Notes: generated by a model from the letters alone, not told the origin. A stretch of 64,000 nt of DNA from Candidatus Hydrogenedentota bacterium (GCA_963668025.2 CAXXTH010000012.1:1537-65536); one strand, 5' to 3'. Positions 8,711 to 61,511 are shown, counted from the first letter of the stretch. Numbers and translations are program-made.

Positions 8711-11240
8711 ATGCGGGCGGCCGAACGGCTGATTGGACTTCCTGACGCCCTGCGCCCCGGGAGGCTTACGCCCGCGAGCGATCGCTTCTCGATTGTGTCG
8801 GATGGGCCGCGATGCTTGGCGGCGCGCCCGTTCGATTACCGTAATCCCTTCCCTGTAAAGGCCTTCGAAGCCGCCCAGGATGAAGTGCGGGGAGCCCTCG
8901 GCTCATCGCATCAGCGCTCCTTGGCCAGCCCAGGATTCCGAGGATGCCTTCGAATACTTCGCCAATCCAGCGGCGGGGATTGGACTTCCAGGCGGCCCCG
9001 AGTGCGGCCTCGTGGATGGATATGGCACGCTGCGCGCCTATACGGGCGCATGGGCTTTTGCGCTGGGAGAAGAGGGTGTTGCGCCCCTCCTGTGTGTAGA
9101 TAAGGCTTCTCGGCCGGAAGGCGCTATCCATGGAGAAACAGCGAGCAAATCTTGCCGCTACCACATGAGTTATTTCGCCGCGGAAGCCCCCGATACGCCC
9201 AGCAGGCCTTTCCCGCTTGACGCCCGGGCGGAATTTTGCTGGGATGGAGGCATACAACCTCAGACTCGTAACATGATCTATTGCTTACGATGCCGCGCAT
9301 CGAGCAAGCTGGAGCGTCCCGCACGCGCCGTGTTGCAGCTCAGTTTACTCCCAAGCGCCTGCTTTATGCGCCGGGAGCGCCGATGAAGATGAAAACGGGG
9401 TCTTTCTGCCTCCTTGGAGTAAAGTGGCCCTCGAGCCTATCGGCAATGGCCGGTATCGCTTAAGCGCCGCACAAGGCACATCGAGTTTCACCCTCGCGCT
9501 CTTAATCGCGCCGGATTGCGAAATCGATAATGGCGCGGGCGCATGCGCGCATTGGCCCGCCTCATTGCCGGGCGCGCCCGGCACGGCGGCGCATCATGAG
9601 CTAATCCTGCGTAAAACGCTTATGCCAGAGACACAGGAGCTATTCACGTGGCTCATTCCGGCTTTTCCGATGCCAGGCCATGAAGAGCATGTCTTGTTAG
9701 GCGCTTCCGCGTCTCTGCTCGAGGCCGAGGCCTCTCGCTGCCTGGGCCAGCCCATGCGGCAAATCCCTGCTTGAATTGCCGGAACAAAAGGCGCAGTCCG
9801 CTTTTACCGCCTCCCTGCGTTATATGGATATGTGCGCCGCTTCTCTTGATGAGAGCCTATTTCCTACGCTGGGGCCGAGCGGCGGCAACCATGCATATGA
9901 CGAATGGGATTGCGCGGACATCCTCCACGCCTACGATCTGGCGGGCGAACACGGCTATACGGAACGCCTAATGGAATACAATTGGCTGCGCGGCCTGACC
10001 ACGGAGCGCGCGGGCGGCGGCATTGTGGGTGCAAGGCCGCCACTATGCCATCACCCAAAACCGGGAATGGCTCGAGCGCATGTTCCCGGATATTAAACGG
10101 CGCATGGCTTTTTTAATACACACCTGGGTGCGCCATAAAGACGAAAACGGCGGCTTGCTGCCTCCTACTGCGAAACCGGAGAACGAACAGATCGACGGCC
10201 ATACCGTCTCGCTGCATTTTTATGCCTTGGCGGGCATACGCTGCGCGGCGGGCATGGCCCGCGCCTTGGGTATGGAAAGCCTCGCGGCGAAGTGGGACGG
10301 CTTCTACTCGGCATTCCATGAGGCCGTATTCGCCCGCCTCGATGTGTTGCTGAAAGAAACGGATGGAGTGATTACCCCCTCGTTCGAGGGATTCGAGGCG
10401 AAATCCACCCTTCAGCGCATTCCCGGCACCCGCCGCAGCCGCCGTCTCGCGGGCCCATATGGCAAAACGGGCGGCTTTGACTGGCTCAACATCGCGGCGG
10501 TGTATCCCACGGAAACCATCGACCCCATGCACCGTTGGATAACCTCGTCCATCTCCCGCTGGGGCAATACGTATGTCGAAGGCCTGCTCCCGTATCCCGA
10601 GGAGGGCGATTTTGCATCGTTGCACACGGCGCTCACGCTTACGCTCGCCGAGACTTGGCTGCGCCGGGGTGATTATGCGGAAACCATCCGCGACCTCTAC
10701 GGCGTGCTGCTGCACACCTCACGCGGAAATGCCATGCCCGGCATCGCCGATTCATCCAGGCGCTTGGATAAAGACACCATGCCCAGCACGCTGGCTGCGG
10801 CGCGCCTCGTGCGGTTCCTGCGCAATTGCCTCGCCTATGAGGAAGGCGGGCGGCGGCTGCATCTCCTTGGGGGTTTTTCGCCAGCTTGGATGAAAGACGG
10901 AGCCGTTATTGCCCTGCGCAACGCTCCTACGGAGCTCGGTGCCATCTCATTCCGCACCCGCATGCGCATTGCAGCCCTGGACATGGAACTCGAGTTCCAT
11001 CCGCGCCCGCAGGCCGAAAGCATCATCCTGCATCTCCCGCCTTTCTTGAAAGAAACGCGTGTGAAAGTGGATGATACGCATGCCGAACAGGCCCATGGCG
11101 GATGGCTCGTTCCCCTAAATGCGAAGAACATCCGCGTTTGGTGGCGCGACGAGCCCTTGCCGGACATCTCCTACGAAGCCGTAGTGCGCGCGTATCTCGA
11201 TGATTACGAGAAACGAACCCAAGCAACGACGCTGTTTTAG
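8711..11240 (+). pseudogene. Large hypothetical protein, possibly (alpha/alpha)6 glycoside-hydrolase-like; N-terminal two thirds fragmented, C-terminal 405 aa intact (10023..11240)
   Basis: ORFs 8711..9103, 8880..9386, 9424..9774, 9776..10096 and 10023..11240 lie in shifting frames, and their protein-like segments read into one another (for example ...NWLRGLTTERAGG | LWVQGRHYAITQNREWLERMF). I do not confidently recognise the family. Confidence 0.4.
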
Positions 11241-11261
11241 CCGCTAGATGGACGGGGCGAT

Positions 11262-11978
11262 CTACGGCGCATAGGGCAGTGGATCGCGTTTGCCCACGGT
11301 ATCGAAGGCCTTCAGCCGCTCGACGCATGTCGGGCACGCGCCGCATGCATGTTCGCCGCCTCGGTAGCACGACCAGGTGTGGGCATAATCCACACCGAGT
11401 TGTATCCCGATATGCAGTATCTCCGCCTTTTTCGTAGATACGAACGGTGCGTGAACCGCCACGGCTTCCCGGCGGTTGAGGGCGAAGACGTGATTGAGGC
11501 GTTCGATGAACTCCGCCGTGCAGTCCCAATAGCCATATTCATCCGAAGCTTGCGCGCCATAAAACACATCGCGGATGCCTTGCGCTTCCGCACACGCGGC
11601 GGCGATGGACAACAGCATCATGTTGCGATTGGGCACATAGGTGGGCGGCTGATCGAGCTGCGCCGCATCAAGATCATCGAGAGCCGGTACGTCTTGCCCG
11701 CCCTCGATGAGGGCTGTCGCTCCTTGCAGCGCATCGCGCAAGAACGAAACATGGATGATCCTGTGGCTGGCTGCTCCCACCGCCGCCGCCTGCCACCGGG
11801 CGCATTCGAGTTCCCTCGCATGCCGCTGGCCGTAATCATAGCTGATGGCATGGACGGGCGACCGGCCCAAATTCCGCGCCACATAGTGCAACAGCGTCGT
11901 GGAATCCATGCCTCCGCTCAACAGCACCAATGCGGGAGAATGATTACAAGAAAGGTTTTCCAAAGGAGCAGTATTCAT
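11262..11978 (-). CDS. queC: 7-cyano-7-deazaguanine (preQ0) synthase
   Basis: PP-loop LVLLSGGMDSTT, then YDYGQRH, YVPNRNMMLLSIAA and the C-terminal zinc cluster WSCYRGGEHACGACPTCVERLKAF. Composition is GC-rich like the backbone. Confidence 0.9.
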   Translation of the reverse strand: MNTAPLENLSCNHSPALVLLSGGMDSTTLLHYVARNLGRSPVHAISYDYGQRHARELECARWQAAAVGAASHRIIHVSFLRDALQGATALIEGGQDVPALDDLDAAQLDQPPTYVPNRNMMLLSIAAACAEAQGIRDVFYGAQASDEYGYWDCTAEFIERLNHVFALNRREAVAVHAPFVSTKKAEILHIGIQLGVDYAHTWSCYRGGEHACGACPTCVERLKAFDTVGKRDPLPYAP

Positions 11979-12724
11979 TTTTTGGGAATTGCTTTTCGTG
12001 TTTTTATTAAGGTTGTTTCTCTTATTTTATTGAACTCGTCATTGCTTTCAAATACGGAATCAACAAGCCGATTGCATCCAGACGCAAGCCTGGCAAGCGC
12101 TTTAAGCTGTTCCTCGCATGCGATGCTTTCGGTTTTGTGTGGATAATTTATGGTATGGTCTACTTCACCCCACACTTCTTCCATTAAGGTTCGAACTTGA
12201 ATCTCACATGTATATCGGCTCGTGCTATTGGCCTGTACAACATAATGGACACTGGTATACATGGATGGGCTTTCCTGCACCGAAATACCCCAGGATTTAT
12301 ATTTGTCTTTTGTTTCATCATCCCATGAACGTACAAAAGGAGGTTCGAAAAAAAGATATTTTTCTTCTTCAATCGTTTGTTCAAGCGCTTGATGAATGTA
12401 GGGGAATTGCGTGGTGTGTAAATGAAGGAGGCGAATTCCTACTAGGTCATTGATTTTCTCGAAGAACGTGTCCGGTGTGATATCAAAGCTTTCACCCGAA
12501 TCCAGCGCTTTGAGGATTTTTCGCTTCAGCTTATCTCTGAGGTGGCCAGGCTCCTTGATTCGAAACTTCACTGAGTGTATATGGGCCATTAACTGCTTAT
12601 TATTCATGAGCGAATCATGGATGACCGACAAAAAGCGGCCAAGATCTTCTTTTTTCTTTACAAATATGTCAACGAGTTCATCGATGACTCTAGTTTGGGA
12701 TGCGCTTATCTGAGAGCCTGCCAT
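11975..12724 (-). CDS. Single-domain RelA/SpoT-family nucleotide pyrophosphokinase (small-alarmone-synthetase / toxSAS-like architecture)
   Basis: Synthetase motifs are present in order: FRIKEPGHLRDKLKRK, DLVGIRLL, YTSVHYV, EIQVRTLMEEVWGEVDH..NY. There is no HD hydrolase domain. The gene is AT-rich, and its stop overlaps the queC start (ATGA at 11975-11978). Confidence 0.85.
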   Translation of the reverse strand: MAGSQISASQTRVIDELVDIFVKKKEDLGRFLSVIHDSLMNNKQLMAHIHSVKFRIKEPGHLRDKLKRKILKALDSGESFDITPDTFFEKINDLVGIRLLHLHTTQFPYIHQALEQTIEEEKYLFFEPPFVRSWDDETKDKYKSWGISVQESPSMYTSVHYVVQANSTSRYTCEIQVRTLMEEVWGEVDHTINYPHKTESIACEEQLKALARLASGCNRLVDSVFESNDEFNKIRETTLIKTRKAIPKK

Positions 12725-12730
12725 CTCTCT

Positions 12731-13726
12731 CTATACCCTTCTAACCAGTGTTTCCGCAATGCCCCGAAACGTTGTCTTTGCCTGATCAAGCTGAGTTTTG
12801 TCCCCCTCGACTTTCCATAGCGGCAAACCTGCAAGTTGGGCCTTATTCGCAAGAGGAAATTCTTTAACATCACCGAGCTTGAAATCTTTCAAGGCGCCTC
12901 TTACTAGGGCCATATCAATATCTTGCAAACGCGTGACGACATCGCTGGAAATGCTTCTTTCCATTCTTGCCATCATATGACTGGAATTCCTGGCTGGCTT
13001 GTTGGCGTATACGCGAATCCTTTGCGGAATGTATCCTATGAATACCGGTTTTCCGGGTAACATTTCTACTCCGTCAGGAGCGAGTTTAACGAAGGTGTCC
13101 CAATCCGTTATCCATTTTGCTAGAGTATGCCCTAGTGTCTGCAACGCCCGTAGTGAAAACAAATCACATGCCATTGGAATAATAAAATAATCACAATCCA
13201 ACAAGACTACTTTCGTCAATGGCCCAATATTGGGGCCGGAATCATAGAAAACGTAATCCGCATTTCTGCTTCTAGCGGCTTCATTCACCACACGGCTCAA
13301 GGCGGATATGTTTTTGAAACCTCGGAGCTTTCGCCGAGCGCAATCTAACCAAGAATCATACAGATCCTCCTCGAAATTGGTGAGTTGAATATCTCCCGGC
13401 AGCAGAAAAACGCCTGCCTCTGAAAGCTCTATTGAAGGGATTCTTCGCACATCGCTTAAGCCATCGGTTAATGGTTTTACGCCAGACCAAAGCGTGGCTC
13501 CATTTACCCCGTCGCTCTCATCCAAGTACTTATCCACCACGGAGTCTTCTATGAAGTATGAAGTGAGATTACATTGAGGATCCGCATCCACTAGCAGCAC
13601 CTTCTTGCCAAGTTCGGCTAAGGCGCAAGCGATATTCGCCGTCAGCGTAGTCTTTCCAACGCCACCTTTATGATTAAAAATAGCGATACGTTTTGCGGGG
13701 AAACGTAGATTTGAGATATCACTCAT
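12731..13726 (-). CDS. ParA/MinD-superfamily ATPase with extended C-terminal region
   Basis: Deviant Walker A IFNHKGGVGKTTLT, then LLVDADPQCNLT and DYFIIPMACDLFSLRAL. Start taken at MSDISNL (13726), which overlaps the upstream gene by 8 nt. The ORF opens at 13840. Confidence 0.85.
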   Translation of the reverse strand: MSDISNLRFPAKRIAIFNHKGGVGKTTLTANIACALAELGKKVLLVDADPQCNLTSYFIEDSVVDKYLDESDGVNGATLWSGVKPLTDGLSDVRRIPSIELSEAGVFLLPGDIQLTNFEEDLYDSWLDCARRKLRGFKNISALSRVVNEAARSRNADYVFYDSGPNIGPLTKVVLLDCDYFIIPMACDLFSLRALQTLGHTLAKWITDWDTFVKLAPDGVEMLPGKPVFIGYIPQRIRVYANKPARNSSHMMARMERSISSDVVTRLQDIDMALVRGALKDFKLGDVKEFPLANKAQLAGLPLWKVEGDKTQLDQAKTTFRGIAETLVRRV

Positions 13727-14312
13727 TTGTTTTCCTGGATGCATTGCCTGTTTTTTTACGTAACGTTTTTCGAGGCCGCGCGTTTTGCATCGCAGCTTTT
13801 GCTGCATCTCTATCAGGGAGGGAGCGTACAAAAAGCTCACCCGCTGCGCTCAACTGCTTCTGGCCTTCTGGCGCTGCCACTAGATACCCCATTTTCATGG
13901 CATTATTCACAGAATTGGATGGATTAGAAAGTTTTTGCTGCGCCGCTTCCGTATTTAGCTCACTTATCTCGAATGTTTTGAAATAAGGAATATCCCGATA
14001 ATGGGTCAGATAGAAAGCAAGGCATGCCACTCTTTCCACATCAGTTTGGGGATTCTTATCGAGCAAGAATGATTTTGGCGATAATGTTCTCTCCATACTG
14101 AAATCGCCTCGAGGATTATCTTTGGCTATATACAATCCATTAGCGCGCACGGGCGCGTCTTTATCTGGCCCCGAATCTATTCCTAATAGTATGGAAACGC
14201 TTTTTAGCACCCGCTTTTGTTCCAGGTTCGAAAGGGAGGATAGTACATCATAGACTGTATCGTGTGCAGTTTTAATGCTATCACTGCCGGCGAACTCTGA
14301 ATTGGCTGACAT
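13719..14312 (-). CDS. Hypothetical protein (197 aa), possible winged-helix DNA-binding C-terminal half with basic tail
   Basis: Clean AT-rich ORF at the head of the cassette. The segment ...RVACLAFYLTHYRDIPYFKTFEISELNTEAAQQKLSNPSNSVNNAMKMGYLV... resembles wHTH proteins, and the tail is Lys/Arg-rich (PRKTLRKKTGNASRKTNE). I recognise no family. Confidence 0.6.
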   Translation of the reverse strand: MSANSEFAGSDSIKTAHDTVYDVLSSLSNLEQKRVLKSVSILLGIDSGPDKDAPVRANGLYIAKDNPRGDFSMERTLSPKSFLLDKNPQTDVERVACLAFYLTHYRDIPYFKTFEISELNTEAAQQKLSNPSNSVNNAMKMGYLVAAPEGQKQLSAAGELFVRSLPDRDAAKAAMQNARPRKTLRKKTGNASRKTNE

Positions 14313-14495
14313 ATCCGCACCCTCATTCCAGCGATATTTCTAGCCGATTACATCTCAACCGGCCTGGCTAAAAGACTAGCATATAATGAATAAGATATTC
14401 CAAAGCTTCCCTTTTACACGCTTGACAACCCTTTGTCAGCACATGGACAATGCGAGCCGTAAGTTTATTCGTAATGTCGGAAGGAATTGTTCCCA

Positions 14496-15266
14496 ATGGC
14501 ATCGCCGAAAATCGCCATTATTTTGTACACGGTGCGGGAAGCTGCAAAAACGGATCTTGCGGGTGCGCTCCAACGTGTGCGAGATATTGGCTTCGAGTAT
14601 GTGCAGTGGAGCGGCATGCCGTCCATGCCCGCCGAAGCGATACGCGAAGCCCTTGACGCCGCAGGCCTTCAGGCCATCGCGGCCCATTGCCCCATGGAGC
14701 CGTTCGAGCAGGATTTCGAGGGGCAGGTGGCGTATTGGAAAACGGCGGGTGTTCTGGATGTCGCACCGGGCGTGATGATGCAGGACTGCCGTGATAACCT
14801 TGCCGCATGGCTCCGTGGCGCGGAGCGCCTGGATGCGCTTGGTGAAAAGCTACGGAAAACGGGCATGCGGTTGTCGTACCACAACCACGCCTACGAATTC
14901 ACAAAATTTGATGGCGATGCCCGCTATCCCCTCGATATCCTCTTCGACGCCACCGCGCCTGAAAATCTGTATGCGGAACTGGATGTAGCGTGGGCCACCG
15001 CAGGCGGGGAAGACCCCGCTGCTTATATCCGCCGGTATGCGGGCCGTTGTCCGCTCGTTCATATGAAGGATCTGGCGGATGCACAAACACAGGAAGGAAA
15101 GCCTGTCTTTGTACCGCTTGGCGCGGGCCGGGTGGATTGGGATGCTGTGTTCAACGCCGTGAAAGAATCCGGTGTCGAGTGGTGCATATATGAGCAAGAC
15201 GATTGCCAAGGAGATGTTTTCGAGGCGATTCAAACGAGCTATGATTTCTTACGGAAAAACCTCTAG
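14496..15266 (+). CDS. Sugar phosphate isomerase/epimerase (xylose-isomerase-like TIM barrel)
   Basis: IAIILYTVRE..., LSYHNHAYEF, YAELDVAW and PLVHMKD are typical of the AP_endonuc_2 / xylose isomerase-like fold. It is a paralog of the next gene. Confidence 0.8.
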   Translation: MASPKIAIILYTVREAAKTDLAGALQRVRDIGFEYVQWSGMPSMPAEAIREALDAAGLQAIAAHCPMEPFEQDFEGQVAYWKTAGVLDVAPGVMMQDCRDNLAAWLRGAERLDALGEKLRKTGMRLSYHNHAYEFTKFDGDARYPLDILFDATAPENLYAELDVAWATAGGEDPAAYIRRYAGRCPLVHMKDLADAQTQEGKPVFVPLGAGRVDWDAVFNAVKESGVEWCIYEQDDCQGDVFEAIQTSYDFLRKNL

Positions 15267-15287
15267 CAACCAGCAAGGAGCCGAGAC

Positions 15288-16037
15288 ATGAGCGCATATC
15301 CTTTTGCCCTTCAACTGTATACGGTCCGAGATCATATGGAGGCCGATCCTGCGGGAACCTTGAAGCAAGTCAAGGCCGCCGGTTTTGACCATGTAGAACT
15401 CGCGGGAACGGCCGGTCTTGCCGTGGAGCAATTTAAAGCGCTTCTGGAGAGTGCGGGCCTTCAACCTTCGAGCGCCCATTACGGGATGGACGCCATCACC
15501 CAGCAAACCTCGCAAGTGATCGCGGACTGCAAGTGCTTCGGCCTTCGCCATGTGGTGATGCCATACGCCAACTTCCAAACTTCCGCGGAATGGGCCGATA
15601 TGGCCCGCAAGCTGGACACGGCGGGCGCGCAGTTACGCGATGCGGGCATCCGCCTCAGCTACCACAACCACGGCCATGAATTAGGCATGATCGACGGAAA
15701 AGTGATCCTCGACCTCATCCTCGAAACGGCCCAGCCGGAAAACCTGTGCGCCCAGCTTGATACATTCTGGATAAAATACGCGGGTGCGGAGCCTGTCGCG
15801 TATATTCAGAAATACGCGGGCCGGTGCCCCCTCATCCACATCAAGGATATGGACCCTTCAAGCAAGAAAGATAAACCGATCTTCGCGGATCTCGGCACAG
15901 GCACGATGGACTGGCCTCCCATTTTCGCCGCCGCAAAGGCTGCGGGCGTGGAATGGTACATTGTCGAAGAAGACACCTGCCCGCATGACAGCCTCGAAAG
16001 TGCGCGCACGGGCGCGGCGTTCATGTTGCAGCAATGA
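15288..16037 (+). CDS. Sugar phosphate isomerase/epimerase (xylose-isomerase-like TIM barrel)
   Basis: AAGGAG RBS. LQLYTVRD, LSYHNHGHEL, CAQLDTFW and PLIHIKDM parallel the upstream paralog. Confidence 0.85.
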   Translation: MSAYPFALQLYTVRDHMEADPAGTLKQVKAAGFDHVELAGTAGLAVEQFKALLESAGLQPSSAHYGMDAITQQTSQVIADCKCFGLRHVVMPYANFQTSAEWADMARKLDTAGAQLRDAGIRLSYHNHGHELGMIDGKVILDLILETAQPENLCAQLDTFWIKYAGAEPVAYIQKYAGRCPLIHIKDMDPSSKKDKPIFADLGTGTMDWPPIFAAAKAAGVEWYIVEEDTCPHDSLESARTGAAFMLQQ

Positions 16038-20479: not shown

Positions 20480-22007
20480 GTAACACTTTAGCCGACTGAA
20501 GTGTTTTCCGGTGGCAGGGGAGGCAATTGGCCGGTGTTGAGGTAGTGGACCAGGGCGTTGCAGACGGTGCAGACGGGGTTTTGCCCGCGTTTTTTCAAAG
20601 TAAAGAAGACGCTCATGAGCACCGCTTGTATGGCGGCTCCTTGGTCGCTGCGGTTGCAGTAACTGTTTTTGCGCAGGATAACGGCAGGACGGATGGAGCG
20701 TTCCGCCAAGTTGTTGTCGAAGGGAACATCTGATTGGCCGAGAAAAGTGAAGAGTTCATCCTGGTGTCGGCGCAGCCTTTTTATGAGGCGCTTGGCGTTG
20801 GCGTCCTCCCAGGGCGTATCGCACAAGTCCCGCAAGCGCCGGGCGAAGCGCGCGCGGCGCGAGTCGTACGCCTCCGGTTCGAGCTCGCCGCGCCGCCGCC
20901 ACAGCCGGATGGCGTCGGCAATCAGGCGGCGCAGCTTTTTGGCGAAGGCGGGCCAGGCCGGGCTGGGCGATTTGTATTTCTCCACGTGCTCGAGTTCGCG
21001 CAACAAATGCACGAGGCACTTCTGCCGGGCGGCGCACGCCACGGCGTTGTACGCGGCCCAGAAGTCGGCCACCAGCGTTCCGGCGAATTCCCGCGTGAAG
21101 AACTGCTGGAGCGCCGGACTCCCCCGCGAATGGTCGATCAGGAAAAAGCTCAGCCCTTTGGTGGCGAAACACCACAGCCATCGGGTCTTGCCATTCACGC
21201 GCCAGCCGGTCTCGTCGGCGTTGAGCACCGCCGAGTCCAGCGCTTCCTGGTGAATGGCCTCGTACCAAGGCAGGAGAATCTCCGCCAGCCTGCGCCACAT
21301 GTGCAGCAGCCCGCCCGGCGTGACCTGGAAAAGCAGGTGGAAATCGAAGACCTCCACGATTTGCGAAAGCGTGTTGCCCAACACATAGTGCAGCCACGCG
21401 CTGAGGACCAGCACCCGGTTGCCCAGGGTCGCGCCCGGCAAGGCCGCCGCCACAACCGGCTCGACTTTCTTCTTGCATCGCGGACACCAGTCGCGGTGAA
21501 TGGTATGCTCGGTGATTTCCGGACGGATGCCTTCGGGTATGTCTTCGGTGTAGCGCGTGCGGGTCTCCGCGCGGCGGTCCAGCGGCCCGCCGCAGTCGGG
21601 ACACACCTTGGTGCGGTGTGTTTCACGCCGGTCGATACGTTCGGGCGGCACGCGCCGGCTGCCGGGGTGGCCCATCTTGCGTCCCGGCTTTTTCTTGCCG
21701 CGCACAGGCGTCTGGGGTTTCCCGTAAACTGGCTGCATGCCCGAAGGGGTGGAGGGCGTTTGGTGGGAAGTGAACGCCGCCTCGGCCTGCTGCTCCGACA
21801 GCAGCTTGGATTGCGCCAACAGGGCAAACACCACGGCATCTTCGCCCAATGCGTAGATCGCTCGGGCTTGCTCCTCCGAGAGCAGCGGTCCCAATGGAAT
21901 GCCACTTATTGCCGTCGCCATGGCGTCTTGGCCCAAAACCACAACATCTTGTAACTATATTATACCGAAACGCTACTTATAGTTGCGCCAGACGGCTAAA
22001 GTGTTAC
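20480..22007 (-). mobile_element. IS66-family insertion sequence (single-ORF, ISBst12-like organisation), 1528 bp
   Basis: Terminal inverted repeats begin with GTAA: GTAACACTTTAGCCGACTG at 20480 and its complement CAGACGGCTAAAGTGTTAC ending at 22007 (15/15 identical at the tips). A perfect 8-bp target-site duplication GAATTTCT lies at 20472-20479 and 22008-22015. Confidence 0.9.
20488..21942 (-). CDS. IS66-family transposase (TnpC-type DDE with zinc finger)
   Basis: CPDCGGPL...DWCPRCKKKV zinc-finger region, then NADETGWRVNGKTRWLWCF..., LVADFWAAYN and QKCLVHLLRE, typical of IS66 TnpC. The ATG at 21921 is the likelier start. Confidence 0.9.
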   Translation of the reverse strand: MVLGQDAMATAISGIPLGPLLSEEQARAIYALGEDAVVFALLAQSKLLSEQQAEAAFTSHQTPSTPSGMQPVYGKPQTPVRGKKKPGRKMGHPGSRRVPPERIDRRETHRTKVCPDCGGPLDRRAETRTRYTEDIPEGIRPEITEHTIHRDWCPRCKKKVEPVVAAALPGATLGNRVLVLSAWLHYVLGNTLSQIVEVFDFHLLFQVTPGGLLHMWRRLAEILLPWYEAIHQEALDSAVLNADETGWRVNGKTRWLWCFATKGLSFFLIDHSRGSPALQQFFTREFAGTLVADFWAAYNAVACAARQKCLVHLLRELEHVEKYKSPSPAWPAFAKKLRRLIADAIRLWRRRGELEPEAYDSRRARFARRLRDLCDTPWEDANAKRLIKRLRRHQDELFTFLGQSDVPFDNNLAERSIRPAVILRKNSYCNRSDQGAAIQAVLMSVFFTLKKRGQNPVCTVCNALVHYLNTGQLPPLPPENTSVG

Positions 22008-23932: not shown

Positions 23933-25528
23933 TTAAGCGATTGGATTCAGTTTCGCCCATGAAGCAACAGCTTGCTCCAAAGTATCAAGTTGTCCATTGA
24001 TACCACGGATCCAGTGTTTATATTCGTCCCGAGATAAACATGAAGCCGCATAAATAAACGCTCTGCGCATCCAAGGAGTCATATCGCAAATAGTCTGTTT
24101 CCGTTCTCTAAACCAAAAATCCTTCTTACTGCGACCCATTGCCAGCATGATCTCTCGCCTTGAGAAATCATCAATAGCATCATTGTAGAGCCTGATATAA
24201 TGGTCTTCAGAATCCCAGTTCCCATCCAGCGCAAATGGTCTCAATACATACATTCGAGAGTACTCAAGATGAGAGACAGTTGAAGTCTTATCGTTGTATA
24301 TACTGATGATACGTTCACCAAAGACTTTCTTCTGTTCCGATGTTAACGTATTCTGTTTGAGTAAATACTCGATTGTCTCACGAATAACAGGTACGAATTT
24401 TGAAAAATTATCGAATATATAGGTGGCAATATCTACATCTCCGAGTTGTCCAAGCCGCCTAAGCAGGAATTTCAGTAGTGATAAGTCAGGCTCTTCTTCT
24501 TTAAGGTGCTCTACTAATATAGATTCAAGGTTCAGATTATCAAGGGCTCTTTGATGCTCCGGCTGCAATGAATCATAGTCTATGTCTTCATATGGGTTTT
24601 CGATACCTATTTGATCTAGCAAATCAAAAAAACGTTCTGTTAAAGTGTCTAGCTCACGTGTTTCATTTTCTCGGAGATAAATCGTCTTGAACGCTTCGAC
24701 CGTAATGATTTTTGTCTTGTTCTGCTGAAGAGTTAATCCATGATTATTGTAAAGCACTCTTGCAAGTAGAGTTAGATATTTGTATGCATCTCCTTCAGAA
24801 TTGCAGAAAATTCGAAAATCATCTGAATAGCGAAGGTATTTAGCATTTTCTGAAAGCAACGACTGGTCAACATCAGACAAACACAGTTCAGCGATCAAAC
24901 GCGATGCAGATGAGCCAACAGGTATACCATAGGAGTATGATCCAGCCCAGTGATTGATAAGTGTTCTTAGGGCAACTGCATGCATATGCCCACTTCCCAA
25001 AGCGCGGTCAAGAGCGTTTTCAATGCGATGGGTATAAAGTCGAGGGTAAAAATCTGCAATGTCGGCAATTACTACGTGAGAGAAACTATGCTCCTCACAT
25101 CTCTTCAAAGATGCTTGTTGAAAACTATGAAATGAATAATGCTCGGAAAACATTCGCCCATTTTGCTCTGGTTGAAAACGAAAGGAATGAACAATGTCAT
25201 CAATTGTTGGTATTCTCTCTAGCTCAAGCTCTTGTCCGACTTCATATACCAAGGCTGTAAATACCAAGAAATCTAGTGGATCTAGCTGCGTAGAAATCCG
25301 AAATCCAAAGCGATGCTTAGGAACTAAACACCGTCGGAATGCTCTGATCTCCCAATTTAATATATCAGTGTTTTTTATGTAGGTCTTTACTGCGTCCCAG
25401 TCTTCCCTTATTGCATCAAATTCAAAAACTTCAGGGAAAATGTCTGTGTCATGCCACGATAGAGCATGTATCAAAGACCAGTCTAGGGAAGCATCCTTCA
25501 GAGTCAAAGGCATGAGTTTTCCCCTCAA
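23933..25528 (-). CDS. Stand-alone reverse transcriptase with helical C-terminal extension (Abi/UG, defence-associated RT-like)
   Basis: RT motifs in order: LVPKHRFGFRISTQLDPLD, VIADIADFYPRLYTH, GIPVGSSASRLIAELCL, YLRYSDDFRIF (YxDD), LTLQQNKTKI. A helical tail of about 230 aa follows. There is no maturase, endonuclease or Cas domain. The gene is AT-rich relative to its flanks. Confidence 0.85.
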   Translation of the reverse strand: MRGKLMPLTLKDASLDWSLIHALSWHDTDIFPEVFEFDAIREDWDAVKTYIKNTDILNWEIRAFRRCLVPKHRFGFRISTQLDPLDFLVFTALVYEVGQELELERIPTIDDIVHSFRFQPEQNGRMFSEHYSFHSFQQASLKRCEEHSFSHVVIADIADFYPRLYTHRIENALDRALGSGHMHAVALRTLINHWAGSYSYGIPVGSSASRLIAELCLSDVDQSLLSENAKYLRYSDDFRIFCNSEGDAYKYLTLLARVLYNNHGLTLQQNKTKIITVEAFKTIYLRENETRELDTLTERFFDLLDQIGIENPYEDIDYDSLQPEHQRALDNLNLESILVEHLKEEEPDLSLLKFLLRRLGQLGDVDIATYIFDNFSKFVPVIRETIEYLLKQNTLTSEQKKVFGERIISIYNDKTSTVSHLEYSRMYVLRPFALDGNWDSEDHYIRLYNDAIDDFSRREIMLAMGRSKKDFWFRERKQTICDMTPWMRRAFIYAASCLSRDEYKHWIRGINGQLDTLEQAVASWAKLNPIA

Positions 25529-26108: not shown

Positions 26109-27473
26109 ATGTTTGAATCGCTGAGCAAGAGATTAGAGCGCACATTCCGGAATATTCGCGGCCAGGGCAAGCTGACCGAGAAAAATATGAAGGACAGCCT
26201 TCAGGAGATCCGTGTCGCCCTGCTCGAGGCCGATGTTAATTATAAGGTCGTTAAGCAGTTCATTACGGATGTGCAGGAAGCCGCCCTCGGGCGCGAGGTG
26301 CTCGAGAGCATCCAGCCTGGACAGATGATCGTCAAGATCGTCCATGACGAGTTGATCAAAATCATGGGCAGCGAGAGCGCTCCGCTCGATATGTGCGCCA
26401 CGCCGCCTACGATCATTATGATGGTGGGCCTGCAAGGCCAAGGCAAAACGACCAGTGCGGGCAAATTGGCCCTGCATTTGAAGAAAAAAGGGCATCGCCC
26501 GCTACTGGTGGGCGCGGATGTATACCGTCCCGCGGCTATCAAGCAGTTGGAAGTGGTGGCGCGCCAGGCGGAGTCGGAATTTTTCAGCTTGGGCGAGCAG
26601 GCGGACCCGGTTGATACATGCTTGATGGCGCGCGGCGAAGCGCAATTGCGCAATTGCGATGTCATTATTCTGGACACGGCGGGCCGCTTGCATGTGGACG
26701 AGCAGATGATGGGCGAAGTGCGCCGCATTCATACGCAGGTCCATCCGAATGAGATTTTGTTCGTGGCCAACGCCATGACGGGCCAGGACGCCGTGAATTC
26801 GGCCAAGCAGTTCCACCAGGCGCTGCCGTTGTCGGGCGTCATCTTGACGCAGCTCGATGGCGATGCGCGTGGCGGTGCGGCGATAAGTTTGACGTATGTG
26901 ACCCAGTGCCCCATCAAGTTCGTGGGCACGGGCGAAAAGCTGGATGCGCTGGATATATTTCATCCCCGGCGCATGGCCGACCAAATCCTGGGGATGGGCG
27001 ACATCGTGTCGCTTGTCGAAAAGGCCCAGGAGGTGGTGGACCGGGATAAGGCCATCGAGTTCCAACAGAAGGCCCGCAAGGCTTCTTGGGATCTCGAAGA
27101 CTTTTTACAGCAGATGCAGCAAATTAAGAAGATGGGCTCGTTCAGCGACATTCTGGGCAAGATCCCCGGCATGAGCAAGCTGATGGGGTCGGAAGAGATC
27201 GACACGAGCGAGTTGAAGTATTATGAAGCCATTATCCGGTCGATGACCATGAAAGAACGGCGCAATCCGAAAATCCTCAACGGGAGCCGCCGCCTGCGCA
27301 TCGCGGATGGCAGCGGCACGCAAGTGCAGGATGTGAACCGGCTGCTCAAGGATTTTGACCAGACGCGTAAGATGATGAAGCAAATGATGAAAGGCAAAGC
27401 CTTTAAACAAATGGCGGCGAAAGGCAAGATGCCTAAGGGCATGGGCCCCATGGGGCCGTTCCCGGGCATGTAG
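26109..27473 (+). CDS. ffh: Signal recognition particle protein
   Basis: NG domain GLQGQGKTTSAGKLA, DTAGRLH, LTQLDGDARGGAA, and a Met-rich M domain at the C-terminus. Confidence 0.95.
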   Translation: MFESLSKRLERTFRNIRGQGKLTEKNMKDSLQEIRVALLEADVNYKVVKQFITDVQEAALGREVLESIQPGQMIVKIVHDELIKIMGSESAPLDMCATPPTIIMMVGLQGQGKTTSAGKLALHLKKKGHRPLLVGADVYRPAAIKQLEVVARQAESEFFSLGEQADPVDTCLMARGEAQLRNCDVIILDTAGRLHVDEQMMGEVRRIHTQVHPNEILFVANAMTGQDAVNSAKQFHQALPLSGVILTQLDGDARGGAAISLTYVTQCPIKFVGTGEKLDALDIFHPRRMADQILGMGDIVSLVEKAQEVVDRDKAIEFQQKARKASWDLEDFLQQMQQIKKMGSFSDILGKIPGMSKLMGSEEIDTSELKYYEAIIRSMTMKERRNPKILNGSRRLRIADGSGTQVQDVNRLLKDFDQTRKMMKQMMKGKAFKQMAAKGKMPKGMGPMGPFPGM

Positions 27474-60692: not shown

Positions 60693-61511
60693 ATGCCAGC
60701 GATAACGGATCATCCTTGTTTTCCGCAGCCTGAGGATGCTGACACCAAAATCTGGCGTTACATGGATTTACCAAAATTGCTTTGGATGCTGGAAGAGAAT
60801 GCTCTCTACTTTTGCAGAGTGGATTTACTAGAAGATACGTTTGAGGGTACAAGGACTCCGTCTACTGAGCCCTTGATTAACGAAGATAGGTGTCCTGATC
60901 TCCTGAAGCAATTTTTTCGAGAAGAAAGAAAAGCTAGACGTTCTTTGGTTTTTGTGAACTGTTGGTACTTTGGTGATCACGAATCTGTTGCTATGTGGAA
61001 GATATACGGGAAAGAGAATAAGTCAATCGCTGTGCAGTCAACTTATCGTTCCTTATTTGAACAGTTAAATCTAGTTCGATTTCTAGAAAACGAAGAATTA
61101 GTTCACGACTGTTTCTTAGGGCTTGTCTCATATATTGACTATACTAAGGAGAGTCTGGGTCGCCCTCAGAATTTGCTCTCTCCATTCATGCATAAGAGAG
61201 AGTCATTTGCCTTTGAAAAGGAAGTGCGTGCATTGGTCGATTCAGAATTCATCAAGAATCTTGGTGATTATTGTGCGAAGAAATCAGATAGGCAAAAAGA
61301 AGCGAGGCGTATTCGTGATCTGTATGCCAGGCATGTGAAAGAGTGCTCAGGAATCACTGTTCCCGTTGATCTATCTGCGCTTATCGAAAGCATTTACGTT
61401 GCACCCAAAGCAGAGCTGTGGTTTGTGGAACTCGTAGAGAAAGTAATACGGCGATATGGACTCAATGTGCCGGTGAAGCATTCGTCTTTGGATGCCGATC
61501 CACTATACTAA
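60693..61511 (+). CDS. DUF2971-family protein
   Basis: KIWRYMDLPKLLWMLEENALYFCRVDLLEDTFEG, VNCWYFGDHESVAMWKIYG, VSYIDY and FMHKRESFAFEKEVRAL match the DUF2971 pattern as I recall it. The gene is AT-rich. Confidence 0.7.
   Translation: MPAITDHPCFPQPEDADTKIWRYMDLPKLLWMLEENALYFCRVDLLEDTFEGTRTPSTEPLINEDRCPDLLKQFFREERKARRSLVFVNCWYFGDHESVAMWKIYGKENKSIAVQSTYRSLFEQLNLVRFLENEELVHDCFLGLVSYIDYTKESLGRPQNLLSPFMHKRESFAFEKEVRALVDSEFIKNLGDYCAKKSDRQKEARRIRDLYARHVKECSGITVPVDLSALIESIYVAPKAELWFVELVEKVIRRYGLNVPVKHSSLDADPLY

Follow-up and report, generated by a model that had tools for sequence, protein, structure and literature searches.

Do the four minus-strand genes at positions 11262-14312 of a bacterial DNA stretch, where the gene of a stand-alone RelA/SpoT-type synthetase overlaps queC, make up one functional system, and if they do not, which of them belong together and what might they do? 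The stretch comprises 64,000 nt from Candidatus Hydrogenedentota bacterium (GCA_963668025.2 CAXXTH010000012.1:1537-65536) and is called the window hereafter. From upstream to downstream, the locus carries gene 1 for a 197-aa protein, gene 2 for a ParA-type ATPase, gene 3 for the synthetase, and queC. An original prediction, made from the sequence alone, had proposed that the first three genes were acquired horizontally, were joined onto a native-looking queC, and form an undescribed toxin-antitoxin, abortive-infection or nucleotide-signalling module with a possible link to tRNA or 7-deazaguanine metabolism. Here we show that the three genes are one unit that has been inherited and exchanged across at least a dozen phyla, and that queC lies outside this unit and stands beside it by accident. 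The triad is real, well delimited, widely distributed and built on a known kind of effector, and it is apparently undescribed. We suggest that it is a self-contained mobile module of about 2.3 kb, of the toxin-antitoxin or abortive-infection type, which would provide a new partner class for an effector resembling the toxic small alarmone synthetases (toxSAS). We give this reading a probability of about 0.55. The module was probably inserted by chance directly upstream of the housekeeping queC gene.

The three genes recur together in the same order

When we scanned one genome per GTDB species (185,579 species representatives) with a profile of the synthetase, we obtained 126 relatives, 80 of which were kept as loci, and the other three proteins were placed at these loci by tblastn. 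The full triad, with gene 1 and the ATPase gene directly upstream of the synthetase gene in the same order and on the same strand, was present in 75/80 loci. Four of the other loci are cut by contig ends, and the remaining one (L026) contains an insertion sequence (IS). An independent start from the 197-aa gene gave 81 loci (80 metagenomic contigs and one viral contig), in which the ATPase gene was found in 72/72 cases with at least 400 nt of downstream sequence and the synthetase gene in 54/54 cases with at least 1500 nt. The original prediction was to fail if homologs of the three genes never co-occurred elsewhere, and these counts speak very strongly for co-occurrence.

The pairwise distances of the three proteins are correlated with each other (Pearson 0.67-0.68) over 108 cassettes, comprising 107 loci and the window, and therefore the three genes have been inherited and exchanged together. 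The cassette measures 2.1-2.35 kb across the loci and about 2.3-2.4 kb in the window. Its G+C content is below that of the flanks in 67/75 loci and never above it, with a mean difference of -0.09. The hosts belong to Acidobacteriota, Pseudomonadota, Planctomycetota, Nitrospirota, Bacteroidota, Myxococcota, Chloroflexota, Verrucomicrobiota, Bacillota, Omnitrophota and others. The nearest relatives of a cassette sometimes reside in other phyla, and the clades of Myxococcaceae, Xanthomonadales and Chitinophagaceae are coherent; this mixed pattern therefore points to horizontal transfer with some vertical persistence. All-against-all clustering of the flanking open reading frames (ORFs) gave no fourth conserved gene, and no flanking gene was common to more than 6/80 loci. 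A k-mer and palindrome survey of 74 loci found no upstream operator or centromere motif common to them.

Across disparate lineages, the synthetase gene thus sits in a conserved, tightly packed tricistronic operon, which is the arrangement used to recognize toxSAS-type operons. In five subfamilies, the presence of small alarmone synthetase genes in conserved operons of two or three genes proved predictive of toxicity (Jimmy et al. 2020, PMC7229694).

Two loci deviate from the intact triad. In the complete Bryobacterales chromosome OZ253444.1 (L074, 5698-10760), the cassette is decayed: two transposase genes that differ from each other (443 aa and 310 aa) break up the ATPase gene, and the synthetase gene contains two in-frame stops, one of them at the catalytic Tyr of YTSVH. 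This locus is uninformative on the order of events. In an alphaproteobacterial metagenome-assembled genome (MAG; L026, 7899-10576), a 435-aa transposase gene lies directly upstream of the synthetase gene, and this is the sole locus with an apparently intact synthetase gene but without gene 1 and the ATPase gene. On whether a neighbor neutralizes the enzyme, the two loci give indirect and conflicting hints, the synthetase gene being kept alone in L026 and inactivated together with the ATPase gene in L074.

Gene layout and base composition of the locus

The features of the locus are given in Table 1. The gene coordinates, junctions and motifs of the original prediction agree with the ORF list and the sequence. 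Gene 1 and the ATPase gene overlap by 8 nt (13719-13726), and a 6-nt spacer (12725-12730) separates the ATPase gene from gene 3. The junction between gene 3 and queC reads AAAAAATGAATAC, in which the ATG of queC (11978-11976) overlaps the TGA of gene 3 (11977-11975) as an ATGA. In the mechanical ORF list, the ATPase ORF can be extended to a GTG start at 13840. The 331-aa form is favored, since the homologues begin about 10 residues before the P-loop and a separate gene call, made on a Logan contig of this organism, also gives 331 aa, and the coordinates first proposed for the ATPase are therefore right.

Table 1. Features at the triad locus, with positions counted from the first nucleotide of the window
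Feature	Positions	Strand	Product or content	Source
Gene 1	13719-14312	minus	197 aa	ORF list
Gene 2 (ParA-type ATPase)	12731-13726	minus	331 aa from ATG	ORF list
Gene 3 (RelA/SpoT synthetase)	11975-12724	minus	249 aa	ORF list
queC	11262-11978 (annotated ORF)	minus	238 aa; host part 11262-11939, beside the module and not in it	
Low-G+C leader	14313-14486	minus	presumed promoter region of the cassette, between the start of gene 1 and the divergent host gene at 14487	
Junction	11940-11978	minus	AT-rich first ~13 codons of annotated queC, including the ATG that overlaps the gene 3 stop	

The base composition changes sharply at the edges of the triad. Two counts made by hand in the original prediction proved exact on recounting (16/60 G+C at 12001-12060 versus 29/60 at 11901-11960), and the change of composition was confirmed by windowed G+C and by the G+C content at third codon positions (GC3). 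The G+C content is about 0.44 from ~11940 to ~14450-14520 and about 0.60 outside, and GC3 is 0.41-0.46 in the three cassette genes versus 0.62-0.71 in queC and five other neighbors, with 0.68 for queC itself. In 60-nt bins, the G+C content is 0.33 at 11940-11999, 0.57 at 11880-11939 and 0.63-0.75 deeper in queC, so the low-G+C block extends about 35 nt into the 5' end of annotated queC. This composition break in the window, together with the lower G+C content of the cassette in 67/75 other loci, supports the proposal that the cassette is a horizontally acquired unit joined onto a native queC gene. It also speaks for a real module, as the original prediction had named a missing compositional break as one ground for its own failure.

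At the other end, the leader has a G+C content of 0.38-0.52 in 60-nt bins up to ~14520, and it may be counted with the cassette by composition. Promoter and repeat scans of the leader gave no convincing sigma-70 site or operator palindrome, and a promoter and terminator scan of the region gave counts not above the shuffled expectation. Only short repeats at chance level were found when the cassette ends were searched for terminal repeats and a target-site duplication. An Rfam scan of 10500-15500 detected no RNA family and no preQ1 riboswitch.

Gene 3 encodes a divergent synthetase-only RelA/SpoT homologue

The description of gene 3 as coding for a synthetase-only RelA/SpoT protein with intact motifs and no HD domain was borne out by Pfam and by the invariance of the motifs across the family. 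Pfam RelA_SpoT (PF04607) matches the 249-aa protein with an E-value of 1.2e-15 (58.2 bits versus a cut-off of 27), and it is the sole significant Pfam match; no HD hydrolase, TGS or ACT domain was detected. The synthetase motifs FRIKEPGHLRDKLKRK, DLVGIR, YTSVH and EIQVRT are all present. Residues R55, K57, K65, D93, G96, R98, Y156, S158, H160, E174, Q176, R178 and T179 are invariant in 20 homologues with 46-64% identity, and they line up with the catalytic motifs of RelP in a profile search of PDB sequences, which returned RelP/RelQ-type proteins alone.

The AlphaFold 2 (AF2) model of the synthetase has a predicted local distance difference test (pLDDT) score of 91.5. When we compared it with solved structures using Foldseek, the best matches were RelP/RelQ (E 2e-10, template modeling (TM) score 0.5-0.6, identity 18-21%), followed by CapRel and then by SaEAS, an exported Streptomyces synthetase, and the probability was 1.00 to the synthetase domains of RelP, RelQ, Rel and RelA. 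The protein is not RelQ, scoring 30.1 bits versus a cut-off of 320 with the RelQ (YjbM) equivalog NF053588. CapRel, which alone among the validated toxSAS enzymes came up in the structure searches, is matched weakly (14-15% identity, E ~1e-6). Specific to the family are a long N-terminal helix, the WDDE motif, which is invariant, and the basic tail that follows the long C-terminal helix. Taken together, the gene 3 product appears from its sequence to be a divergent, synthetase-only RelA/SpoT homologue of the small alarmone synthetase class, and it is apparently active.

Gene 2 encodes an extended ParA/MinD-type ATPase

The gene 2 product matches Pfam AAA_31 (2.3e-29) and CbiA. Its ATPase motifs are intact, comprising the deviant Walker A motif NHKGGVGKTT, the Walker A' motif DADPQ and Walker B, and K20, G21-T27, D47, D49 and D162 are invariant in 25 homologues. 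The protein falls below every NCBIfam equivalog cut-off; the ParA_partition model NF041546 reaches 64.9 bits versus the required 180, and does so over the P-loop region only. The nearest solved relative is 3PG5, a 361-aa 'uncharacterized protein' that aligns over residues 12-312 with an E-value of 2.4e-45, the extension included. Soj comes next with 1e-19, again over the P-loop region only. Since 3PG5 is the only close solved relative, we assign the ATPase, as judged from sequence, to the ParA/MinD (SIMIBI) class and to a distinct extended subfamily within it, of which 3PG5 is the sole solved member. The searchable literature on 3PG5 holds nothing beyond phasing methods. The genomic context of 3PG5 might reveal whether the extended ParA subfamily is generally tied to conflict modules.

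Gene 1 encodes a predicted winged-helix protein of an unnamed family

The 197-aa product of gene 1 has no match in Pfam, NCBIfam, PADLOC or PHROGs. Its family is abundant: clustering at 90% leaves 1502 homologues and clustering at 50% leaves 1425 representatives, nearly all of them 180-220 aa long. The alignment and the AF2 model (pLDDT 78) describe an N-terminal helical hairpin (~5-43), a disordered linker (51-69), a winged helix (~79-178) and a basic tail that begins RPRKTLRKK. Foldseek matches are weak (E 0.04-1) and consistently of the winged-helix type, including MarR, a PhiH1 repressor-like protein, the winged-helix domain of MCM8 and the DNA-binding domain of Rok. The original prediction of a winged-helix C-terminal half with a basic tail is thus in line with the alignment, the model and Foldseek, and we describe the product as a predicted DNA-binding-type winged-helix protein without a named family.

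On a Logan contig of the same organism (L001, 1788-2380), gene 1 was called as two ORFs of 61 aa and 125 aa, and tblastn placed the frame change near residue 50, in the predicted disordered linker. Either the assembly is in error here or strains vary by a frameshift.

A second copy of the fold was observed in a Chitinophagaceae MAG (L059, 11705-13015), where a 179-aa full-length paralogue of the gene 1 product (hhalign probability 99.3%, ~30% identity) is encoded about 1 kb downstream of the triad. Its gene is followed after 4 nt by a gene for an unrelated 255-aa protein without a Pfam or PADLOC family and then by a gene for a 526-aa HEAT-repeat protein. A stretch RNKRDVAH in the 255-aa protein recalls, by eye only, the HEPN Rx4-6H motif. 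Because the paralogue pairs with an unrelated protein here, the sequence comparison suggests that the gene 1 family may be a reusable modular partner for other effectors. Such reuse is characteristic of the regulators or adaptors of conflict systems.

Plasmid, phage and defense context

Synthetase homologues with ~30% identity, which are longer single proteins, are encoded on 102 plasmids, mostly of the pXO1 type from Bacillus, and also in a Ralstonia phage and a 12-kb Vibrio phage record. On a 5-kb Paracoccus plasmid such a homologue adjoins BrnTA, and on a Geobacillus plasmid it lies among integrases. Only one close match was found in the plasmid collection. On the megaplasmid pNK81 of Caballeronia sp. 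NK8 (L082, 4886-6654), genes for a divergent ATPase (27% identity) and a 224-aa synthetase (42%) are joined by a stop/start overlap, and no gene 1 homologue was detected at this locus. The ParA-like gene of L082 may carry a frameshift at its 5' end, and PLSDB gives no annotation for this record. PHROGs contains only generic ParA families and RelA/SpoT-like families without known function.

In the window, the cassette is flanked by queC, a 405-aa gene without known function, two xylose-isomerase-like TIM barrels and an AsmA/YhdP protein, and an IS66 transposase gene lies 6 kb off. When we classified 106 immediate neighbors at 53 loci using Pfam and PADLOC, they were mostly housekeeping genes, such as those for GroEL, methylmalonyl-CoA mutase/MeaB, SurE, PurD and transporters. 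They included 2 integrases and 2 rve_3 transposase domains, and a few HigA/HigB-like and IS21 genes recur across loci. Genes for replication, an integrase or conjugation do not recur next to the cassette at the 80 loci. Toxin-antitoxin cassettes, more typically than systems that reside in islands, are inserted singly among core genes.

Two further low-G+C patches were observed in the window. In an island at ~23.5-25.5 kb, a minus-strand gene (23933-25528) codes for a full-length defense-associated reverse transcriptase (DRT) of type 8 (PADLOC Drt8 E 1.7e-158; Pfam RVT_1). It sits between an IS66 transposase gene (20488-21942) and ffh/SRP54 (26109-27473), 10 kb from the cassette, and has a triad-like G+C content of ~0.40-0.46. 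The second patch contains a plus-strand gene (60693-61511) for a 272-aa protein that matches the PADLOC candidate PDC-S31 (E 1.6e-22) and no Pfam family. By analogy, these islands give weak support, showing only that the foreign low-G+C DNA here includes defense cargo.

Proposed mechanism and alternative explanations

From the known behavior of these protein families, we propose a synthetase effector under a two-protein control layer. ParA/MinD ATPases are ATP-dependent dimer switches that attach to a surface, as a rule DNA without regard to its sequence, and that a partner resets with a basic peptide, and small winged helix-turn-helix (wHTH) proteins with flexible tails act as operon autoregulators and as ParA partners. 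In the proposed module, the synthetase would be the effector and would transfer pyrophosphate from ATP to an acceptor, either a purine nucleotide to yield (pp)pGpp or (pp)pApp, or the 3' end of tRNA, and either product would lead to growth arrest. The gene 1 product and the ATPase would form a DNA-associated control layer. The wHTH protein, which has a basic tail, would sit on DNA, probably autoregulating the operon and interacting with the ATPase as small centromere-binding proteins do with ParA. Depending on a DNA- or nucleoid-related cue, the ATPase would either keep the synthetase inactive or license it. Two variants are conceivable. The partners may sequester or neutralize the enzyme, which would be an antitoxin logic, or they may activate it, which would be a licensing logic like that of the YejK-like protein in the PANGU system described below. 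A more specific version holds that the wHTH protein and the ATPase read the state of the DNA (nucleoid integrity, invading DNA or replication status) and license the synthetase to stop growth, with the gene 1 product as a reusable adaptor, so that the triad would be a new class of immune or addiction module; we put this forward tentatively, as a rather doubtful possibility.

Here, we need to consider several points that weigh against the proposed conflict module. It is built from sequence, context and predicted structure, and toxicity, neutralization, substrate and phage phenotype enter it as predictions. For both partners, fold class is the only ground for predicting DNA binding, and Foldseek supports the wHTH weakly (E 0.04-1). 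The closest solved folds of the synthetase are the non-toxic RelP/RelQ and not CapRel. The L026 synthetase gene without partners argues weakly against a strict antitoxin role, although the IS may have removed its promoter, and this locus leans slightly toward the licensing logic or promoter loss. Operator or centromere-like repeats were not found upstream of the cassette at 74 loci or in the window. One match was obtained in 2.9 million viral contigs (IMG/VR), and its neighbors are uninformative. PADLOC v2 has no system model for the cassette and gave only P-loop-level matches to PDC-M28B and an insignificant match to PDC-S33. Finally, the original prediction had looked for a location in defense islands, and this did not hold: as a raw count, about 4/106 immediate neighbors match PADLOC models, namely mad8 twice, mad3 once and an SNF2 helicase once, and most neighbors are housekeeping genes.

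The best surviving alternative is a non-toxic accessory signaling module, in which the enzyme would be a low-output (p)ppGpp source like RelP/RelQ, tuned by the regulator and the ATPase, for example to the state of the chromosome or the cell cycle, without any conflict role. It draws on RelP/RelQ being the best structural and sequence matches among solved structures, on the housekeeping character of most neighbors and the rarity of defense genes, on the synthetase kept alone in L026, and on the single viral contig with the cassette. The identity to RelP/RelQ is nevertheless only 18-21%, and the RelQ equivalog reaches 30 bits versus 320. Besides, the distribution is patchy (126 matches in 185,579 species representatives), the G+C content is systematically below that of the host, the insertion sites are unrelated, one copy has decayed by IS insertions and stop codons (L074), and distant relatives are carried by plasmids and phages. 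These properties are typical of selfish or defense cassettes and not of core regulators, and we consider the signaling explanation unlikely.

Element maintenance offers a second alternative, with the gene 1 product and the ATPase as partition-like or anchoring functions and the synthetase as an addiction toxin, comparable to delta/omega-epsilon-zeta of pSM19035. The adjoining genes for an intact-motif ParA-class ATPase and a small basic-tailed protein predicted to bind DNA, the tight packing of the genes and the variant on the Caballeronia megaplasmid would suit such a role. It is at odds with the gene order, which is reversed relative to par loci, and with the ATPase, which fails ParA_partition (64.9 versus 180 bits) and falls in the 3PG5-like subfamily. 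No centromere-type repeats were found in the window or in 74 upstream regions, no replication, integrase or conjugation gene recurs at the 80 loci, and plasmids gave one close match. The curated model, gene order, repeats and context all indicate that the module is not a par locus, and we regard a maintenance role as improbable. We retain the toxin-antitoxin- or abortive-infection-type module as the best explanation of the triad.

queC stands beside the cassette by accident

The stop/start overlap with queC raises a third alternative, in which the triad would be coupled functionally to queC in a nucleotide- or tRNA-modification pathway with 7-deazaguanine, similar to QatABCD or Dpd. Apart from the ATGA overlap, the match of the queC product to the PADLOC QueC model (E 5e-26) could be cited for it. 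However, the same product matches Pfam QueC with 1.9e-60 and scores 184.6 bits with the housekeeping equivalog TIGR00364, above the cut-off of 150.3, its GC3 of 0.68 is host-like, and Pfam and PADLOC scans of the window neighbors found no QatA, QatB, QatD or Dpd genes nearby. Among about 155 other loci, queC adjoins the triad in none. The overlapping ATG itself lies in AT-rich DNA upstream of the QueC homology, since the QueC models start matching at residue 16. A functional link to queC, and with it the suggested link to tRNA queuosine, QatABCD or Dpd, was therefore rejected, and we consider it very improbable. The resemblance of the locus to a tRNA or 7-deazaguanine system came from this accidental link with queC.

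The ATG overlap and the ~15 residues ahead of the conserved QueC core appear to be cassette-type DNA, and this extension would have been created by the insertion. In the simplest reading, the insertion displaced the native leader of queC, which would now be driven by read-through or by the cassette, and the coupling would be a side effect. In the 3' end of the synthetase gene, a sigma-70-like site was observed on the minus strand at 12051-12024 (TTGAAA, 16 nt, TAAAAT; 10/12 matches), about 45 nt upstream of the queC ATG, and it could act as a cassette-borne promoter of queC.

An empty-site comparison yielded no usable contig, as the only related one (L166, a Logan contig from another run) is probably chimeric, and a look-up of the neighboring host gene gave nothing. 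L166 is 100% identical to the window over 10114-12009 and then continues into unrelated AT-rich sequence, with the break inside the synthetase gene (L166 1-353 compared with window position 12009); the switch gives a fused ORF with a GMP_PDE_delta-like, eukaryote-type N-terminus. L166 is thus probably a chimeric assembly, and it hints at eukaryotic host DNA in the samples.

The last alternative, a decayed partition locus of an integrated plasmid with an unrelated passenger, brought together in a one-off accident, takes its appeal from the ParA-like annotation and the IS66 transposase gene 6 kb away, and it is negligible because about 155 independent loci, spread over many phyla and flanked by unrelated genes, show the same three genes in the same order, an outcome that also excludes the ordinary decayed par locus that the original prediction had named as a threat to itself.

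Comparison with known systems

The original prediction had also suggested that a ParA-like ATPase and a wHTH protein are not among the described partner classes of toxSAS enzymes, and PADLOC v2, Pfam, NCBIfam and the searchable literature gave no match to such a combination with a small alarmone synthetase. Likewise, the searchable literature on toxSAS, PANGU, exported alarmone synthetases and the nucleoside-triphosphate-dependent conflict systems of the Aravind group describes no small alarmone synthetase with a ParA-like partner, an absence that is not proof. The triad is abundant. It is widespread in phyla of soil and fresh water, which screens in model organisms cover poorly, and neither PADLOC v2 nor the current family databases detect it. 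Small synthetases of the RelA/SpoT type encoded in conserved mini-operons have proved time and again to be toxins or effectors of phage defense. With each new partner class came a new way to sense infection or stress, as seen with antitoxins, with CapRel, which senses the capsid, and with PANGU, which senses the nucleoid. If the ATPase does control the synthetase, the module would link the best-studied bacterial DNA-positioning switch to alarmone or tRNA toxin biology, and for the first time a toxin that modifies nucleotides or tRNA would have a positioning ATPase of the ParA class as its sensor or regulator. The triad is a compact three-protein system that can be tested directly.

Among known systems, the toxSAS enzymes (FaRel, FaRel2, PhRel, PhRel2 and CapRel) are the nearest in organization. 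They are reported to make (pp)pApp or (p)ppGpp, or to pyrophosphorylate tRNA 3' ends (PMC7229694; PMC11782079). As in the triad, a synthetase-only gene with intact motifs stands last or central in a packed, conserved, horizontally spread operon, and relatives are found on plasmids and phages. The partners differ, however, being a 197-aa wHTH protein and a 331-aa ParA-class ATPase here, while known toxSAS partners are small antitoxins, a SAH hydrolase or a fused antitoxin domain. The enzyme is also far from CapRel (14-15% identity), and its toxicity is a prediction.

PANGU resembles the triad in concept. In type I, a YejK-like nucleoid-associated protein, Pag1A, is paired with the GRel toxSAS Pag1B, and the chromosome-bound YejK-like protein, freed by phage-induced genome degradation, turns an inactive toxSAS tetramer into an active complex (bioRxiv 10.64898/2026.04.06.716658). 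Both systems combine a small alarmone synthetase effector with a DNA-associated partner, which is predicted in our case, and both would fit a model in which the partner licenses the enzyme on a change of DNA status. There are three differences. First, PANGU has two genes and no ATPase, whereas the triad has three genes and its ATPase stands obligatorily between the other two. Second, the gene 1 product lacks a YejK/NA37 signature (no Pfam or NCBIfam match) and has a hairpin-linker-wHTH fold. Third, the 249-aa synthetase has no room for the added C-terminal domain by which Pag1B binds Pag1A.

RelP and RelQ (SAS2 and SAS1; 6EWZ and 5DEC) are the best structural matches and share the catalytic motifs and the long C-terminal helix. 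The triad enzyme differs from them at 18-21% identity, with an extra N-terminal helix and the invariant WDDE, and its gene resides in a mobile triad, not as a stand-alone housekeeping gene. Type Ib ParA systems with a small centromere-binding protein likewise place a deviant-Walker-A ATPase next to a small protein with a flexible basic tail, but the triad has the opposite gene order and a 3PG5-like ATPase that exceeds theirs by about 100 aa, and centromere repeats and a replicon context are missing. The omega-epsilon-zeta locus of pSM19035 is similar in that a regulator, a neutralizer and a nucleotide-modifying toxin are united in one locus. Because the partner families differ, the three genes are obligatory and the enzyme is not close to CapRel, the module appears to be neither a toxSAS nor a PANGU system as these are defined; by analogy, it would work most like a toxSAS toxin-antitoxin or abortive-infection system, and in concept it would be most like PANGU.

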